A program made the position numbers and the translations under genes. The notes below the pieces were generated by a model, which ran no database searches, had not been told where the DNA came from, and saw only the letters and a list, made by a program, of their open reading frames with translations. A DNA stretch of 64,000 nt. Origin: Bacteroidales bacterium. GTDB taxonomy: Bacteria; Bacteroidota; Bacteroidia; Bacteroidales; JAUNSR01. Each line of letters opens with the position of its first letter. Position 1 is the stretch's first letter. Below, one piece after another: positions 13,354 to 19,699 of this stretch. Where the stretch lies: assembly GCA_036655355.1 (NCBI GenBank), contig JAVVQG010000008.1, positions 30,404 to 94,403 on the forward strand, written 5' to 3'.

Positions 13354-13530
13354 TTACTTTACCTTTTTTCGGAAATGTTTCCAGATAGGGATGAAAACGA
13401 AGGCGGCCGAGAAAAAAAGATACAAAGCAAGTTTCGCTGTAAATTCTTCCGTTTCGGTTATGACCACGTAACATAAAAATCCCCATAAGAGGATTATACA
13501 GCTGATGTTGAAGTTATTTAATTTTCTCAT
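13354..13530 (-). CDS. possible small two-TM membrane protein (58 aa, below the ORF-track cutoff)
   Basis: A hand translation of the minus strand gives MRKLNNFNISCIILLWGFLCYVVITETEEFTAKLALYLFFSAAFVFIPIWKHFRKKVK*. It has two hydrophobic helices and a basic tail, and lies in the dxs-tyrA gap. There is no homology evidence. Confidence 0.3.
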   Translation of the reverse strand: MRKLNNFNISCIILLWGFLCYVVITETEEFTAKLALYLFFSAAFVFIPIWKHFRKKVK

Positions 13531-13658: not shown

Positions 13659-14438
13659 TTAGACGCTTTTTATATTCTCGCGTGCCGTGACAAGGTATTG
13701 CTTGAGTGCGTCCGCATCTTTGTTACGGATGATTTGAAGCAGTTGCTCCATTTGTACGCAGATCTTTTCAACTTGCTCCGGTGTATGGGGGTTGAAGAGA
13801 ATCTCACTCAGCAGGTAATCATCTTCCGAAAGAAGTCCCTGTGCGATAGCCATGTGTTTCTTGAAAGTTGTTCCGGGCGCATTCTGCGGCTTCATCACAC
13901 CGGTAAAAACCAAGGTGGATACAAACGGGATAGAGAGCGAGTAGGCGATCGTTTCATCGTGTTCTTTGAAACTGTATTCGAAGATGTTCAGTCGCAAGCT
14001 CTGATAAAGGTCCTTGAAGAACACTTTGCCCAAGTGATCCGATTCGGAAATGATGATGGTGAACTGAGTCGACAGATCGCTTAGATTGGCGAACGTCGGC
14101 CCGAACATCGGATGTGTCGAAACAAACGGATGTGCCGCACGGGCATAGAATTCCGGTAATCCGGTTTTTACCGAAGCGATATCCGATAGGATGCATTGCG
14201 CACTCAGGTAGGGTAGTACCAGGTTGAATGCATCGATCGTATATTTTACAGTCGCCGCGTTGATCACCAATTCGGGATTAAACGCGCGGATCTCTTCGGG
14301 ATCGGTCATCCGGATGGTATTAAACACAAAACGCAACTTGTGCGGATCGGTATCGAAAAGAGCTACCTCGTGCTGCATGCACAGCACGTCGGTAAAGAAG
14401 GTGCCCATTTTTCCGGCACCCAGGATCAGGATTCTCAT
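13659..14438 (-). CDS. tyrA: prephenate dehydrogenase
   Basis: 259 aa with the MRILILGAGKMG Rossmann motif and SVKT...HPMFGP motifs. It sits in the aromatic operon. Confidence 0.85.
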   Translation of the reverse strand: MRILILGAGKMGTFFTDVLCMQHEVALFDTDPHKLRFVFNTIRMTDPEEIRAFNPELVINAATVKYTIDAFNLVLPYLSAQCILSDIASVKTGLPEFYARAAHPFVSTHPMFGPTFANLSDLSTQFTIIISESDHLGKVFFKDLYQSLRLNIFEYSFKEHDETIAYSLSIPFVSTLVFTGVMKPQNAPGTTFKKHMAIAQGLLSEDDYLLSEILFNPHTPEQVEKICVQMEQLLQIIRNKDADALKQYLVTARENIKSV

Positions 14439-14441
14439 AAT

Positions 14442-15509
14442 TTACTTGTTGATTAGCTCGATCTGTTTGCGAACCGATTCTTCGTGAATCGCCTCGAGCA
14501 CCGTCATGATGAAATCTTCAGACATACCCATCTCCACGCCTTGATTGACACGGCGCGTAAGGATGTCGTCATAGCGTCCGGTCTGCAGTACCGGCATGTT
14601 GTTCTCTTTTTTGTATTGTGCGATTTCTCCCGAAACACGCATACGTTTCGCCAAAAGCTCCAGCAACTGATCGTCAAGATCATCAATCTGACGGCGTAGT
14701 GAGGAGAGGCTTTCAGTATTCTGAGTGGTGTTACGGATCACCAATGCGTTGAGGATCACTTCGAGCGTAGCCGGCGTAACCTGCTGCTCTTTGTCACTCC
14801 ATGCGCAATCGGGGTTGCAATGAGACTCGATGATCAAGCCGTCGAACCCAAGGTCCATCGCCTGTTGAGAGATCGGAGCGATTAATTCGCGTTTTCCCCC
14901 GATGTGGCTCGGATCGCACAGGATAGGCAATTCAGGCAGACGGCGGCGCAATTCGATCGGAATGTGCCAAGCCGGCTGGTTGCGGTAAATCTTTTTATCG
15001 TAGGTGCTGAACCCGCGATGAATCGCCCCGATGCGGCGAATCCCCGCATTGTAGATTCGTTCGATTCCGCCGATCCACAGTTCGATGTCCGGGTTTACCG
15101 GGTTTTTGATCAATACCGGCAGATCCACCCCTTTCAGCGCATCGGCGATCTCTTGCATCGCGAATGGGTTGGCTGAGGTACGGGCTCCGATCCAGAGCAT
15201 ATCCACTCCGTGTTTCAGTGCTTCGAAAACGTGTCTTTCTGTAGCCACTTCAACAGCGGTGTACATCCCTGTTTCCTCTTTCACTCTTTTCAGCCACGGT
15301 AATCCGATCACGCCTACGCCTTCGAAGCCTCCCGGTTTGGTGCGGGGTTTCCAGATTCCCGCGCGGAAGATTTTCACACCGGCCTTCGCCAGTTCGTGAG
15401 CTGTCTGTAATACCTGTTCCTCGCTTTCGGCGCTGCATGGGCCGGAGATTACCAACGGACGTTTGTTGTCCATTCCCGGTAATAATATAGATTCGAATTT
15501 CATGTTCAT
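14442..15509 (-). CDS. bifunctional 3-deoxy-7-phosphoheptulonate (DAHP) synthase / chorismate mutase
   Basis: 355 aa. The N-terminal type I-beta DAHPS/KDO8PS-like barrel shows GPCSAES, KPRTKPGGFEG and CDPSHIGG. The C-terminal AroQ chorismate mutase shows LRRQIDDLDDQLLELLAKRMRVS... Confidence 0.9.
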   Translation of the reverse strand: MNMKFESILLPGMDNKRPLVISGPCSAESEEQVLQTAHELAKAGVKIFRAGIWKPRTKPGGFEGVGVIGLPWLKRVKEETGMYTAVEVATERHVFEALKHGVDMLWIGARTSANPFAMQEIADALKGVDLPVLIKNPVNPDIELWIGGIERIYNAGIRRIGAIHRGFSTYDKKIYRNQPAWHIPIELRRRLPELPILCDPSHIGGKRELIAPISQQAMDLGFDGLIIESHCNPDCAWSDKEQQVTPATLEVILNALVIRNTTQNTESLSSLRRQIDDLDDQLLELLAKRMRVSGEIAQYKKENNMPVLQTGRYDDILTRRVNQGVEMGMSEDFIMTVLEAIHEESVRKQIELINK

Positions 15510-15519
15510 GTTGATGTGT

Positions 15520-16704
15520 TTATTGGATTATATTCTCAATTCGTTTATAAGCTTCATTTAGTTTCTCTTCGGAAGCGCAAAGGGAAAGGCGAATAAATCG
15601 CGTTCCGTTTTGGCCAAAGATAGTGCCGGGCGTGATAAAAACCCGAGCCTGATGTAAAATCTGTTCTGTTAATTCTTCTGCATCCGCATATTTCTCGGGG
15701 ATGCGTCCCCACAGGAACATACCGGTTTGCGCCGCATCGTATTCGCAGTTCAGCAGTTGCATGATCCGCTCCGCAACACCTCTTCGCTCTCGGTAGATGG
15801 TGTTGTTGGCTGCGTGCCATTCGGGGGTGTTTTTCAACGCTTCGATGGCTGCCATCTGCAACGGACGGTAAACGCCCGAATCGATGTTGCTCTTTACACG
15901 CAGGATCCATTGGATAAAGTCGGCATTCGAACAAGCCACGCCCATTCGCCAACCGGGCATGTTGTGCGATTTACTCATCGAATTGAGTTCGATGCAAATC
16001 TCTTTCGCACCTGCAACGCTAAGGATGCTGAGTGGTTTGTCGTTCAGAATGAAGCTGTACGGATTGTCATTCACAATCACGATGTTGTGTTTCTTTCCGA
16101 AAGCAACGAGTTTTTCGAACAGTTCGGGAGTGGCATTTTTGCCCGTCGGCATGTGGGGATAGTTCACCCACATCAGTTTCACGCCGCTGAGGTCGCTCTT
16201 CTCTAACGCCTCAAAGTCGGGCATCCAATCGTTCTCGTGTTTCAGGTCGTATTTGATTACCTGAGCATCGGCCAGGGTGCTCACCGAAGAGTAAGTTGGA
16301 TATCCCGGATCGGGAACCAGCACCTTATCGCCCGGATTAACGAAAGCGAGTGTGATGTGAAGAATACCCTCTTTCGAACCGATCAACGGTTGGATCTCCG
16401 TAGCCGGATCGAGAGAAACGTCGTACCAACGGTCGTACCATTCGGCGAATGCCTTGCGGAAGGCCGGAATGCCCACGTAAGGCTGGTAGCCGTTCGCATC
16501 CGGTTTTACGCTGTCAATCTGCAAGCCGGAGATTGTATTTTCAGAAGGAGAAAGGTCGGGACTGCCAACACCCAGACTGATCACATCCAGTCCTCGGGCG
16601 TTCATTTGAGCGATTTCTTTCAGTTTTCGGGAGAAGTAGTACTCCTTTACCTGTGAAACGCGTTCGGCCGGGCAGATCGCGCTTTTATGGATTTGATTCT
16701 TCAT
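15520..16704 (-). CDS. PLP-dependent aminotransferase (class I; likely aromatic/prephenate aminotransferase)
   Basis: 394 aa with the NSMSKSHNMPGWRMG PLP-lysine motif and NYPHMPTG. It overlaps the pheA 3' end by 20 nt. Confidence 0.85.
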   Translation of the reverse strand: MKNQIHKSAICPAERVSQVKEYYFSRKLKEIAQMNARGLDVISLGVGSPDLSPSENTISGLQIDSVKPDANGYQPYVGIPAFRKAFAEWYDRWYDVSLDPATEIQPLIGSKEGILHITLAFVNPGDKVLVPDPGYPTYSSVSTLADAQVIKYDLKHENDWMPDFEALEKSDLSGVKLMWVNYPHMPTGKNATPELFEKLVAFGKKHNIVIVNDNPYSFILNDKPLSILSVAGAKEICIELNSMSKSHNMPGWRMGVACSNADFIQWILRVKSNIDSGVYRPLQMAAIEALKNTPEWHAANNTIYRERRGVAERIMQLLNCEYDAAQTGMFLWGRIPEKYADAEELTEQILHQARVFITPGTIFGQNGTRFIRLSLCASEEKLNEAYKRIENIIQ

Positions 16705-17521
16705 ATTCGCCTAATATTTTAAAGTCTTTCGTAAAGGGAATAATTGCTTCGAGCGCTTGTTTATATCTCAGGTAATCGTTGAATGTAAGGTCCACGTAAA
16801 AGCGGTATTCCCACTCCCGTCCCAGGATCGGCATCGATTGTATTTTAGTCAGGTTGATATCGTAAAAAGAAAGAATCGTAAGCACTTTGGAGAGCGAGCC
16901 GTGTGTATGCGGCACGCAGAAGACGATGGACGATTTGTCTACGTTTTCTTTTCGTACCAATTCATCGGCGATCCATTGATCCGCCAGAATCAGGAAACGG
17001 GTGAAGTTGCGTTTATTCGTCTCAATGGCTCTTTCCAGGATTTCCAGTCCGTAAATCCCGGCGGCATATTCACTGCAGATGGCGGCATGTCCGGTTAGTT
17101 TCCTTTCGCTGATCTCTTGCGCACTGCTTGCCGTGTCTCCTTTCTCAACCACTTTTACCCCGTGTTGTTTCTCAAGGTATTCGGTACATTGCATCAAGGC
17201 GATCGGATGAGAATTCACTTCGCGTATTTCGCGCAGGGTTTGTCCCGGTAAAGCGCAAAGGGTATGGGAGATGTGGAGCTTGTGTTCCCCGATAATCTTC
17301 ATGTCGCTTTGGCGAAGCAGTTCGTGATTCTGGAGCAGGCTTCCGGCAATGGTGTTTTCAATCGCCATTACGCCTAAGAGAGAACGGTCGGCGTCAAACC
17401 TGGTGAACATTTCCGGGAAAGAGAGACAAGGTACCACCTCGATCTCTTGGGGTTGGAAATATTGTTTGGCAGCCATTTCGTGGTAACATCCTGAGATGCC
17501 CTGGATTGCAACTTTTGTCAT
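16685..17521 (-). CDS. pheA: prephenate dehydratase
   Basis: 278 aa with a PDT domain (AIENTIAGSL, TRFLIL) and a C-terminal ACT domain (GSLSKVLTILS..., ESNP-type end). Confidence 0.9.
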   Translation of the reverse strand: MTKVAIQGISGCYHEMAAKQYFQPQEIEVVPCLSFPEMFTRFDADRSLLGVMAIENTIAGSLLQNHELLRQSDMKIIGEHKLHISHTLCALPGQTLREIREVNSHPIALMQCTEYLEKQHGVKVVEKGDTASSAQEISERKLTGHAAICSEYAAGIYGLEILERAIETNKRNFTRFLILADQWIADELVRKENVDKSSIVFCVPHTHGSLSKVLTILSFYDINLTKIQSMPILGREWEYRFYVDLTFNDYLRYKQALEAIIPFTKDFKILGEYEESNP

Positions 17522-17533
17522 AGTATTTTGAGA

Positions 17534-17569
17534 TAAAAAAAGGGTCCCGCCATTTCAGTGACGGGACCC
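17534..17569 (-). terminator. attenuator terminator 13 nt upstream of the pheA ATG
   Basis: The minus strand reads GGGTCCCGTCA-CTGAAA-TGGCGGGACCC, an 11-bp stem with one G-U pair. Seven T residues follow (17541-17535). Confidence 0.8.
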
Positions 17570-17607
17570 TTCGGTATTTTGTTATGCTTTTATATACTCA
17601 CATACAT

Positions 17608-17691
17608 TTATATATACAGCCTCCCGCCACTACTTATCTGATAAAAGTAGAAGTAATAAAATCGGAAGTATGTAAAGAATGTATTGAACAT
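17608..17691 (-). CDS. putative Phe/Tyr-rich leader peptide of the aromatic amino-acid operon (27 codons, not in ORF track)
   Basis: Minus-strand ATG at 17691, TAA at 17610-17608, peptide MFNTFFTYFRFYYFYFYQISSGGRLYI. Codons 2-17 contain 7 Phe and 5 Tyr. The 3' end carries the antiterminator segment AGTGGCGGGA. Confidence 0.7.
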   Translation of the reverse strand: MFNTFFTYFRFYYFYFYQISSGGRLYI

Positions 17692-17718
17692 AGTGCTTGT
17701 TTTTTCCTTTGTACGCTA

Positions 17719-17726
17719 CAAATGTA
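17719..17726 (-). promoter_or_regulatory. Bacteroidetes-type -7 promoter box (TAnnTTTG) for the leader/pheA operon
   Basis: The minus strand reads TACATTTG 28 nt upstream of the leader ATG. A TTTG lies 19 nt further upstream as a possible -33 element. Confidence 0.55.
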
Positions 17727-17959
17727 GGAACGTAATTTTAATAAACAAATTTTTCAAAAAGTTTTTTTGTTATTTATTTTACTGATTAGCTGACTTATTG
17801 TTATTGAAAACAAGGGAGCGCTGACTTTTGTTGAGTTCTCTTTTGTTATAAAAAGGTTATAAATATACTCGGAAGGTCCAATATTTAGTCGTTTCAGAAT
17901 TAACGTTTCTATTTTTTACTATCTTTGAATAATATATCATTTACGACCAGTCAAAGAAA

Positions 17960-18415
17960 ATGAGTGAATTTGTAACATCTCCGGATAATCATGTAAAAGG
18001 TGTTTTTCTGGAAGCGATCGGGAAAGTAAAGAATAATGAGTTACTCTCATTATCAGATTTATACGTAGGCGTCAGTTTTGATGATCTGGCACTTACAGTT
18101 TATGATGACGAGGAAGCGTTGCTTGCCCAGGCCAACATCGATGAGTGGGCGGACTTTAAAGAGGATCCCGATACGTTTCAAGAGCGTGTGACGGAAGTGT
18201 TGAAGAAAACACTTCACGAGAAGGATCTTAAAGATGCAATTGAGGCGCTCGATGTGATTCGTCCGTTTTCAGTTGTGTTGGTTGATGAAGATTTTGAACA
18301 AAAGGAGGAGCTCTTCAGACTAGATGACAATCTGGTGGTTATTGAAGATGATTTTCTAAAAAATATTGATCAGGAACTGGATGACTTCCTTAAGAATCTT
18401 TTAGCGGATGTATAA
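17960..18415 (+). CDS. acidic hypothetical protein
   Basis: 151-aa ORF with a clean reading frame, very rich in D/E (…DEDFEQKEELFRLDDNLVVIEDDFLKNIDQELDDFLKNLL). No motif was recognised. Confidence 0.55.
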   Translation: MSEFVTSPDNHVKGVFLEAIGKVKNNELLSLSDLYVGVSFDDLALTVYDDEEALLAQANIDEWADFKEDPDTFQERVTEVLKKTLHEKDLKDAIEALDVIRPFSVVLVDEDFEQKEELFRLDDNLVVIEDDFLKNIDQELDDFLKNLLADV

Positions 18416-18562
18416 GGAGTTGTTTGAGATGGCTTGAAGACATTTTGAAAAAACTATGAAGGAGGATGTACCGGCGAGGTATATCCTCCTTTTGACATAA
18501 ACGATACCGGGGTCTCCTTGGTAATGAGGCGAGCGATTGATTATCAAATAACATATAGATAT

Positions 18563-19699
18563 ATGAAAAACACGATTTTGTATTGCTTTTTATTTTTAGG
18601 TACGATGGCGAGCCCAAAACTATCGGCTCAATTTCAGGAGAACACAACCCCGAATGAATCCTTTAAACCGGGGCAAATCTGGAAAGATGATCAAGGAAAA
18701 CACATTAATGCGCATGGAGGTGGTATTCTTTTCCATGAAGGAGTCTATTATTGGTATGGAGAACATAAAAGTGAAGATACAAGTTCAGCATTGGTAGGGG
18801 TTACGATTTATGCTTCTAAAGATCTATACAACTGGGTAAATCGTGGAGTTGCATTGTCTGTAATGCCTGAAGGGAGTGGACATAAGTTAGAGTCGGGTTG
18901 TGTCATTGAACGGCCAAAAGTGATTTACAATTCCCAAACGGGGAAGTTTGTAATGTGGTTTCACTTGGAACTAAAAGGGCAAGGATATAAGGCTGCAGAA
19001 TACGGCGTCGCTCAAAGCGATACCCCTTTCGGACCGTTTCAATTCCTATATGCCTCTCGCTCTTGTGCGGGCAAATGGCCTCAAAATATGACTGAATCGG
19101 AAATTCAAGTAGCCAACTCTTTGAAAAACGGTGAGTCGAAAGATTTAAGTTGGGCGGAATCCGTAAAATTAGGCAGCTTAATAGCACGGGACTTACAAAC
19201 GGGCCAGATGTCTCGCGATATGACACTTTTTGTAGATGACGATGGAAGTGCCTATCACATTTTTTCTTCGGAAGAAAATCAAACCTTGCATATTGCACAG
19301 CTCACCCCCGATTATTTACATCACACAGATAAATATGTACGCATCCTTCCGGGAGAACAAAATGAAGCACCGGCTATCTTTAAGAAAGACGGGGAGTATT
19401 GGATGATTAGTTCCGGGTGTACAGGGTGGAGTCCGAATAAAGCACGTCTTTCTAAAGCTTCTTCCATTTGGGGTCCATGGGAATCGCTTCCCAATCCATG
19501 CATCGGTGAAGGTGCCGAAAAAACCTTCTACTCCCAAAGTACGTATATCTTGCCGTTAGAAGGAACGAACAAACAATGGATATTCATGGCAGACCGTTGG
19601 CGTCCGGAAAATCCAATCGATGCCCGCTATATCTGGTTACCTATCAAATTCAATGAGGGCGTTCCCTATTTGGAATGGCAGGAGGAGTGGAAACGTTGA
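18563..19699 (+). CDS. secreted glycoside hydrolase family 43-like protein
   Basis: The signal peptide begins at the internal ATG (MKNTILYCFLFLGTMASPKLSAQ). Five-bladed-propeller GH43-type motifs are present (HAHGGGILFHEGVYYWYGEH, VIERPKVIY, SRDMTLFVDDDGSAYHIFSSEEN, EAPAIFKKDGEYWMISSGCTGW). Confidence 0.75.
   Translation: MKNTILYCFLFLGTMASPKLSAQFQENTTPNESFKPGQIWKDDQGKHINAHGGGILFHEGVYYWYGEHKSEDTSSALVGVTIYASKDLYNWVNRGVALSVMPEGSGHKLESGCVIERPKVIYNSQTGKFVMWFHLELKGQGYKAAEYGVAQSDTPFGPFQFLYASRSCAGKWPQNMTESEIQVANSLKNGESKDLSWAESVKLGSLIARDLQTGQMSRDMTLFVDDDGSAYHIFSSEENQTLHIAQLTPDYLHHTDKYVRILPGEQNEAPAIFKKDGEYWMISSGCTGWSPNKARLSKASSIWGPWESLPNPCIGEGAEKTFYSQSTYILPLEGTNKQWIFMADRWRPENPIDARYIWLPIKFNEGVPYLEWQEEWKR

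Follow-up and report, generated by a model that had tools for sequence, protein, structure and literature searches.

On the minus strand of the Bacteroidales stretch analysed here (64,000 nucleotides of contig JAVVQG010000008.1, hereafter the window), a short Phe/Tyr-rich open reading frame (ORF) and four RNA segments with competing pairings lie directly in front of an operon of the order pheA-aminotransferase-DAHPS/CM-tyrA, in which DAHPS/CM is a bifunctional DAHP synthase/chorismate mutase. We read this element as a ribosome-mediated leader-peptide attenuator that senses charged tRNA-Phe and tRNA-Tyr and controls the Phe/Tyr operon behind it, and we put the probability of this reading, which draws on sequence comparison and modeled folds, at about 0.85. 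The element combines the parts that characterize the class: a short ORF, presumably translated, enriched in codons for the end products of the pathway; an antiterminator exclusive of a terminator; a first segment that overlaps the regulatory codons and sequesters the second; an intrinsic terminator that separates the leader ORF from the first structural gene; and spacing of stall and stop positions of the kind found in attenuators. Coordinates of all features are collected in Table 1.

An initial annotation of this DNA had described a 27-codon ORF with 7 Phe and 5 Tyr among codons 2–17, preceded by a TAnnTTTG −7 promoter box, and both are present in the sequence exactly as described. The resulting 12 Phe or Tyr (F/Y) codons in 16 make the leader run the single richest 16-codon stretch in all six frames of the window, and first-order Markov simulations (n = 100) reached maxima of only 7–10 F/Y per 16 codons. 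The genome is AT-rich (42% GC), and the same comparison places the leader ORF beyond chance; it is not a chance product of such a genome.

An alignment of PheA homologues was used to scan GTDB representative genomes, and the 80 closest PheA loci were taken, 77 of them with upstream sequence. The loci are labeled Muribaculaceae, Parabacteroides/Tannerellaceae, Barnesiella, Coprobacter, Alistipes, Dysgonomonadaceae, Paludibacteraceae, Prevotellaceae and other Bacteroidales; Bacteroides, Phocaeicola and Prevotella isolates are not among the 80. The element is found at 68 of the 77 loci, with carriers in each of the eight named groups, in 67 with an ATG start and in one with GTG (L062:4805-4885, a full element with the leader (M)NRFYFTYSFYYFYFSKQVRQDFVCK). 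The ATG-initiated mini-ORFs, such as MTRFYAYYFFFYFYFAKNKNGILYA and MNRFSFTYYFYYFYFSRVKAGVCM, hold 7–12 Phe/Tyr codons each and lie 147–243 nt before pheA. Within the ~10-kb loci, a nucleotide profile of the element matches only directly upstream of pheA and in the same orientation. When the window was left out and the profile made from 66 other loci, it had a single match in the window, at 17685-17536 on the minus strand (52.2 bits, E 2e-15). The comparison of related pheA upstream regions that had been proposed as a check on the initial annotation recovers both the F/Y mini-ORF and, as described below, compensatory changes in the helices.

The family shows a coding signature in which two amino acids are used in near-equal measure. 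ATG opens the F/Y frame in 67/67 leaders and either of the other two frames in 0/67, and the runs total 352 Phe vs 331 Tyr codons, with only 4 Trp. U fills the first codon position in 87% of cases, whereas the second is divided between U and A (43/41%) and the third between U and C (65/26%). Past the run the peptides diverge, some ending ...FDKK* or ...FSR* and others running on as ...KNKNGILYA*. The nucleotides below these divergent tails (AAUAAAGGCGGGAUUUUGUAUG) are conserved, and the stop positions are not conserved in frame, so the 3′ part of the ORF is constrained as RNA, namely as segment 2, rather than as peptide. For the run itself, we infer that it is translated.

The 191-nt leader of the window folds with a minimum free energy (MFE) of −49.4 kcal/mol (z-score −5.1; 0/200 shuffles as low), and the folding check proposed with the initial annotation, in which the energies of the 1:2 and 2:3 alternatives are compared, gives an MFE structure made up of the terminator and a long upstream 1:2 hairpin. 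The terminator had been described as a hairpin, GGGTCCCGTCA/TGGCGGGACCC, followed by T7 and ending 13 nt before the pheA ATG at 17521. It is present, and a hairpin scan lengthens its stem to 14 bp (17572-17559 with 17552-17539), of which 8 are GC, with a loop of 6 and an energy of −24.8 kcal/mol. A segment of the leader had also been predicted to pair with the 5′ arm of this terminator, and in the window AGTGGCGGGA (17631-17622) and TCCCGTCACT (17566-17557), the partners of the antiterminator on the minus strand, indeed form a 2:3 pairing of 10–11 bp; the 2:3 segment as a whole folds at −24.5 kcal/mol.

The competition between the 2:3 and 3:4 helices is supported, but the initial annotation had missed the 1:2 helix, in which the F/Y codons pair with the segment that holds GUGGCGGGAG (17634-17621). 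Here CUUCCG at 17668-17663, within the F/Y codons, pairs with CGGGAG at 17626-17621, and a second stretch, UUAUUACU at 17659-17652, pairs with 17634-17627. The folds support a full four-segment layout, in which the 1:2 helix completes the classic design. Given −23.2 kcal/mol for the 1:2 hairpin and −24.8 for the terminator, termination would be the default state, and the antiterminator would require that segment 1 be kept off segment 2. The base of the 1:2 hairpin in the window (17692-17685 with 17600-17593) pairs over the leader AUG (UAUGUUCA with UGAGUAUA), which in the modeled fold would block re-initiation on completed leader transcripts; in most relatives, unlike in the window, the outer 1:2 helix leaves the AUG uncovered.

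Helix statistics were taken from a 67-sequence MAFFT alignment (A2), in which the 1:2 and 2:3 helices were specified by hand and tested by pair counts, slid controls and an alignment-free duplex test. The terminator is 95.4% paired across the family, against 29–54% in slid controls, with 7/10 pairs changed on both sides (0/500 shuffles as high), and RNAalifold finds it independently with 8/11 compensatory pairs. The antiterminator is 82.1% paired vs 35–52% when slid. The 1:2 helix is 83.3% paired, and its inner stem is 90.5% paired with 6/8 pairs changed on both sides. Segment 2 and segment 4 resemble each other, and pairing of 2:3 might for that reason merely mirror 3:4. At the key 2:3 pair (columns 94:192) the counts are GC 40, AU 22, GU 4 and unpaired 1, whereas the pairs that this segment-3 column makes with segment 4 are CG 40, UG 15 and UA 11. 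In many Parabacteroides-type leaders, segment 2 follows segment 3 by a Watson-Crick change and segment 4 merely wobbles. The switch to AU in 2:3, where 3:4 is often UG, argues that the 2:3 covariation is no such echo. Independently of the alignment, the best duplex that the post-run stretch of each leader can form with the terminator 5′ arm of the same leader has a median energy of −14.2 kcal/mol vs −6.0 shuffled, and arms swapped in from other leaders equal the own-arm duplex in a median 14% of comparisons. The 2:3 sequences differ by lineage and in second copies of the element (GGCAGGA/UCCUGCC, GGUCGGG/CCCGACC, GACAGGAUU/AAUCCUGUC and UGAGGUG/CACCUCU). Considered together, the aligned sequences support covariation of all three helices.

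Such helices could also belong to a switch controlled by a protein or ligand (riboswitch-, TRAP/PyrR- or T-box-like), with the U-rich ORF untranslated and its F/Y codons a by-product. In favor of such a switch, the F/Y segment forms half of a conserved helix, and its sequence is partly set by pairing with the AAUAAAGG segment. However, every leader has a start codon (ATG, in one case GTG) that opens its F/Y frame, and in none are the other two frames so opened. The three-base periodicity is strict: position 1 remains U, whereas position 2 accepts F-to-Y swaps and position 3 accepts U/C changes. A ribosome terminating at the stop codon would sit over segment 2, the leader codons stand for precisely the amino acids that the operon produces, and no Rfam riboswitch, T-box or protein-binding leader matches at E <= 10 except for weak sub-threshold leader matches. 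We regard an untranslated switch as very unlikely.

The leader-peptide attenuator also makes demands on geometry. In all 67 leaders the core of segment 2 starts 11–18 nt (median 15) past the last F/Y codon. The stop codon lies ~10–12 nt past the core in 37 leaders and ~10 nt before the core end in 17, with a few outliers; relative to the core end the full range is −16 to +36 nt, and most leaders have the stop no more than about one ribosome footprint away from the core. We folded the leaders with ribosomes represented by masks (+12 nt from the A-site codon, +14 from the stop). As free RNA, 66/67 leaders fold as 1:2 plus terminator. With the mask through an F/Y codon and segment 4 not yet made, 2:3 forms in 66–67/67, and with a ribosome on the stop codon it forms in 0/67. 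The outcome is stable over three stall positions, and the window behaves alike for stalls at Phe9, Phe14 and Tyr17. The positional logic of the initial annotation, in which a ribosome at the stop occludes the antiterminator and one stalled in the F/Y run frees it, agrees with these masked folds, for which footprint sizes were assumed.

The model that these data support best is one in which transcription would start a few nucleotides past the TACATTTG box, and a ribosome would load on the AUG ~21 nt downstream and translate the 27-codon leader, whose codons 2–17 are nearly all Phe or Tyr. With ample Phe and Tyr, it would run to the stop codon at 17610-17608 and cover segment 2; if it had already left, segment 1 would re-pair with segment 2. 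In either case segment 3 would be free for segment 4, and the 14-bp hairpin with U7 would end transcription at 17541-17535, 13 nt before pheA. With Phe or Tyr scarce, the ribosome would stall in the F/Y run and mask segment 1, and the freed segment 2 (UAGUGGCGGGA) would capture segment 3 (UCCCGUCACUG) before segment 4 has been transcribed. This would prevent the terminator from forming, and RNA polymerase would read into pheA, the aminotransferase, DAHPS/CM and tyrA. For the window leader we infer where transcription starts, that it is coupled to translation, and that the operon responds to Phe and Tyr in vivo.

A translated leader might act through another signal, either by TnaC-like arrest in response to free Phe or Tyr or by control of Rho or of pheA translation. 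Aromatic-rich nascent chains can contact the exit tunnel, and the terminator is close enough to the pheA start (13 nt) that alternative folds could affect initiation there. Arrest peptides usually need specific residues, whereas here the peptide is unconserved beyond being F or Y and the tails differ. A hairpin and U-run with compensatory changes point instead to intrinsic termination, and the on-when-starved direction expected of a biosynthetic operon fits codon stalling, whereas a TnaC-like sensor would switch the operon on when the amino acids are abundant. We consider control by such a signal quite improbable. Hardly credible is the proposal that the mini-ORF encodes a small protein in its own right, closed by its own terminator, and pheA has a separate promoter: the ORF does have its own promoter box and a strong intrinsic terminator, and many small aromatic-rich or hydrophobic peptides exist, but the 13 nt from T-run to pheA ATG leave no space for a promoter, the element is confined to the region before pheA, in-frame conservation extends neither to the C-terminal half of the peptide nor to the stop position, segment 2 and the terminator 5′ arm covary, something a plain gene with a terminator would not need, and in relatives with tandem units the second unit is without its own promoter box.

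Several points weigh against the attenuator reading. The terminator is stronger than the 10-bp 2:3 helix alone (−24.8 vs −14.9 kcal/mol), so read-through hinges on the kinetic order in which the helices form, which is an assumption, and the ribosome masks are likewise coarse assumptions. RNAalifold run on the MAFFT alignment recovers only the terminator as consensus structure. That alignment is not structure-aware, and the shuffle control ignores phylogeny, so that related sequences can beat shuffles. The outer antiterminator pairs (columns 98-101) are paired in only ~55–70% of leaders. Nor is the pheA leader universal, as 9/77 loci are without it. To our knowledge, coupling of transcription and translation has not been demonstrated in Bacteroidota, a phylum without Shine-Dalgarno-led initiation. 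Finally, the case for the window is built on sequence, conservation and folding, and looks to a Flavobacterium homologue for transcript data.

At the nine loci without the element (L001, L002, L021, L028, L046, L049, L050, L064 and L078), no F/Y ORF was found even with alternative starts. Two of them, the Muribaculaceae loci L002 (4790-4830) and L021 (~110–125 nt before pheA), share a different, conserved mini-ORF, ATGATTATTATTGTTTTGCGTTTGTTCACATTT and MIIIVLRLFTF..., which may be a replaced or degenerate leader.

The initial annotation had held that no Phe/Tyr leader was described for Bacteroidota. This fails: a pheA-aspC3 leader-peptide attenuation element, THC0290_N_0195, was annotated in Flavobacterium psychrophilum (Guérin et al. 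2021, ISME Commun, PMC9723704, Table S7, SI D9). In that species the transcription start site (TSS) is mapped, the leader AUG lies 20 nt from it and the leader reads MNTNNTFYSNNSFYFYWNIGRDCYMVI; read-through is condition-dependent, with operon expression maximal in minimal media, and the element is conserved in other Flavobacteriaceae genera without an Rfam match (PMC9723704). The published 170-nt sequence matches our Bacteroidales profile over positions 9-153 of 155 (36.7 bits, E 3.5e-10; 0/2000 shuffles scored). Judged by this match, the window element is the Bacteroidia homologue of a Flavobacteriia element already proposed with transcriptomic support. The two share phylum, the order pheA then aminotransferase, the −7 box, a 5′ untranslated region (UTR) of ~20 nt, a 27-aa F/Y-rich leader and the same GGGAUUGU / ACAAUCCC / GGCGGGAUUUU segments followed by a U-run. 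They differ in class (Flavobacteriia vs Bacteroidia), and the Flavobacterium leader has fewer regulatory codons and one Trp (FY..FYFYW). The earlier report is a single-species entry in a table and supplementary information, without an antiterminator model, covariation, the Bacteroidales distribution or tandem versions.

The same phylum also has Bacteroid-trp (RF01692), a candidate leader-peptide attenuator of Trp operons in Bacteroidetes (Weinberg et al. 2010, PMC2864571), so the mechanism class is already accepted for Bacteroidota. It too serves an aromatic operon, but its codons are Trp in front of trp genes, whereas those of the window are F/Y in front of pheA-tyrA, and it has no match in 17300-18000 even at E <= 10. 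The "pheA" motif of the same study is actinobacterial (Weinberg et al. 2010, PMC2864571). At the gathering threshold, Rfam 15 finds only a tRNA gene and no leader family in the whole window; this gene, at 2175-2261 on the minus strand (51.9 bits), is the sole match. A permissive scan of 17300-18000 gave only sub-threshold matches, to Phe_leader (21.2 bits), Thr_leader (20 bits) and unrelated small RNAs, and we took these matches as chance or terminator-driven. The Phe_leader (RF01859) match has an E of 0.58 against a gathering score of 55 bits, and comes from the terminator and the U-rich codons. The window leader works like E. coli pheL, yet is no member of RF01859. The E. coli pheL-pheA system shares with it the mechanism class, prephenate dehydratase as first gene, a short leader, four segments and an intrinsic terminator just before pheA. 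In contrast, pheL has Phe codons only and controls a single gene, whereas the window leader has Phe and Tyr at ~1:1 and precedes both branch enzymes and DAHPS/CM. Initiation also differs, in that Bacteroidota, unlike E. coli, initiate without a Shine-Dalgarno sequence (Baez et al. 2019, PMC6847099).

Since Phe and Tyr are both products of the operon, a leader reporting on the two fits its content. Multivalent attenuators are familiar from the E. coli ilvGMEDA leader, with Leu/Val/Ile codons, and the thr leader, with Thr/Ile codons. There the same logic applies, in that codons for several amino acids stand in one leader and shortage of any relieves termination; the amino acids, phylum and sequence are other, and the FYFYFY alternation of the window is built from codons differing only at position 2. 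Candidate upstream ORFs containing Phe and Tyr are known before shikimate-pathway genes in other genomes and phyla (Stav et al. 2019, PMC6429828, Fig. 6b), and are likened to the present element by description only. On leader peptides of Bacteroides or B. thetaiotaomicron, the literature yielded only a generic remark that some long 5′ UTRs of B. thetaiotaomicron hold small ORFs (Ryan et al. 2020). We found no earlier report of a wide Bacteroidales distribution, mixed Phe/Tyr sensing or tandem units, and older attenuator surveys may hold predictions. Among these, the comparative attenuator studies of Vitreschak et al. 2004 and Lopatovskaya et al. 2010 reportedly cover some Bacteroidetes and may list a pheA attenuator.

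The Bacteroidota promoter consensus is TAHHTTTG, with the TSS 4–5 nt downstream of the box (Baez et al. 2019, PMC6847099), and by this rule the TSS of the window leader is predicted at the position in Table 1, the 20 nt from TSS to leader AUG in F. psychrophilum offering an analogy. A TAnnTTTG box stands <=80 nt upstream of the leader ATG in 65/67 leaders, against a background expectation of 0.02 per 40 nt, and the distance from box to ATG is 18–29 nt in 59 of the 67. On the minus strand of the window, a TTTG at 17746-17749 lies 19 nt upstream of the −7 box; this TTTG is a candidate for the −33 element known from Bacteroides-type promoters.

Table 1. Coordinates of the leader element, its operon and related features. 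Positions are those of the window unless a locus is named.
Feature	Position	Strand	Basis or remark
−7 promoter box of Bacteroidota type, TACATTTG (TAnnTTTG)	17719..17726	minus	read in sequence
Predicted TSS, 5′ UTR ~21-23 nt before leader AUG	17712..17714	minus	spacing rule for the −7 box
Leader ORF, 27 codons + TAA, MFNTFFTYFRFYYFYFYQISSGGRLYI*	17608..17691	minus	ATG at 17691; ORF list
Regulatory codon run, codons 2-17 (7 Phe, 5 Tyr)	17641..17688	minus	F/Y content
Segment 1, 5′ strand of 1:2 (anti-antiterminator) helix	17649..17692	minus	overlaps start codon and F/Y codons; MFE
Segment 2, 3′ strand of 1:2 helix	17593..17639	minus	core (U)AGUGGCGGGA 17632-17622, also antiterminator 5′ arm
Segment 3, terminator 5′ arm 17572-17559	17557..17572	minus	UCCCGUCACU 17566-17557, antiterminator 3′ arm
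Segment 4, terminator 3′ arm 17552-17539 and T7 17541-17535	17535..17552	minus	hairpin scan
pheA (prephenate dehydratase + ACT domain)	16685..17521	minus	first structural gene; Pfam, NCBIfam
Class I/II aminotransferase, presumed aromatic/prephenate aminotransferase	15520..16704	minus	Pfam, NCBIfam
Bifunctional DAHP synthase/chorismate mutase (DAHPS/CM)	14442..15509	minus	Pfam, NCBIfam
Prephenate dehydrogenase (tyrA-like), last operon gene	13659..14438	minus	Pfam, NCBIfam
Terminator-like hairpin 3′ of tyrA, probable operon end	13478..13495	minus	pattern match only
Tandem units in relatives	L088:840-1200, L084:845-1200, L090:380-690, L073:4669-4964; L081-L083 upstream of pheA at 1201		

Pfam and NCBIfam bear out the gene identities and order that had been read for the operon, and with them the match between leader codons and products, pheA leading to Phe and tyrA to Tyr. 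The operon also contains shared steps, namely the aminotransferase, chorismate mutase and the pathway-entry DAHP synthase. The PheA of the window is 100% identical to a protein of a Bacteroidales metagenome-assembled genome (MAG). Upstream of the attenuator, the ORF list places genes at 17960-18415 and 18518-19699, both on the opposite strand, and we could rule out that the terminator belongs to a co-directional upstream gene. With 13 nt between T-run and pheA ATG and a divergent upstream neighbor, pheA would be transcribed only by read-through of the terminator. The nearer neighbor, a 151-aa ORF divergent from the attenuator promoter region (17960-18415, plus strand), has no Pfam or NCBIfam match, and a 151–152-aa ORF stands in the same divergent position in relatives (L084 137-592, L086 252-707, L088 106-561, L089 and L090). 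A scan of the window for other leader ORFs rich in a single amino acid found nothing convincing.

In the closest relatives of the window (L081-L084 and L088, PheA 78–82% identical), two complete units stand in series before pheA, and tandem units recur in L090, a contig of the Coprobacter cluster, and in L073, a Paludibacteraceae MAG. Each unit consists of a leader ORF, segments 2, 3 and 4 and a U-run. The first leader, MFNTF[Y/F]AYFRFYYFYF..., matches that of the window, which holds only this first unit type, abutting pheA. The second, M..FFFFYFYYYFMRSHEVR..., has another 2:3 sequence, UGAGGUG/CACCUCU, and is without a promoter box of its own. The Salmonella mgtCBR leader is a precedent for attenuators with leader ORFs in tandem, and the tandem units are a variation, not a new principle. 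In two close relatives, at L083 (1145-1200) and L085 (50-256), an extra 55–200 nt containing AAATGGCGCATTTGTACCTTA separates the U-run from pheA; the L085 insert appears as two copies of a ~100-nt repeat. The insert at these two loci could be an inserted repeat or an extra promoter that bypasses the attenuator.

More broadly, we lean slightly toward the view that the elements form a phylum-wide family of bivalent Phe and Tyr attenuators over the post-chorismate branch and DAHPS/CM, repeatedly duplicated into serial two-unit attenuators. If so, the serial arrangement would be a two-stage, sharper starvation gate, and the family would be direct evidence of tight transcription-translation coupling where initiation proceeds without Shine-Dalgarno pairing.

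For the window itself, the element is an instance of a known mechanism that is computationally well supported; Rfam has no model of it, the annotations of Bacteroidales genomes omit it, and it lends itself readily to experiment. The textbook picture is unchanged, and the useful additions are breadth, the balanced Phe/Tyr design and the serial duplications. The alignment and three-helix model suffice to seed an Rfam family and to annotate 68/77 pheA loci. Cultured carriers include Parabacteroides and Alistipes timonensis, and Barnesiella and Coprobacter are genera whose PheA clusters carry the element. Attenuation of this kind needs a ribosome to load on the nascent RNA within ~20 nt of its 5′ end, which makes the leader a natural reporter both of coupling and of initiation independent of Shine-Dalgarno pairing. 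With Phe and Tyr codons in even proportion, one leader could report on two end products of a branched pathway, and the element offers a testable mechanism by which gut Bacteroidales, where very few attenuators are documented, would control aromatic amino-acid biosynthesis in cis.

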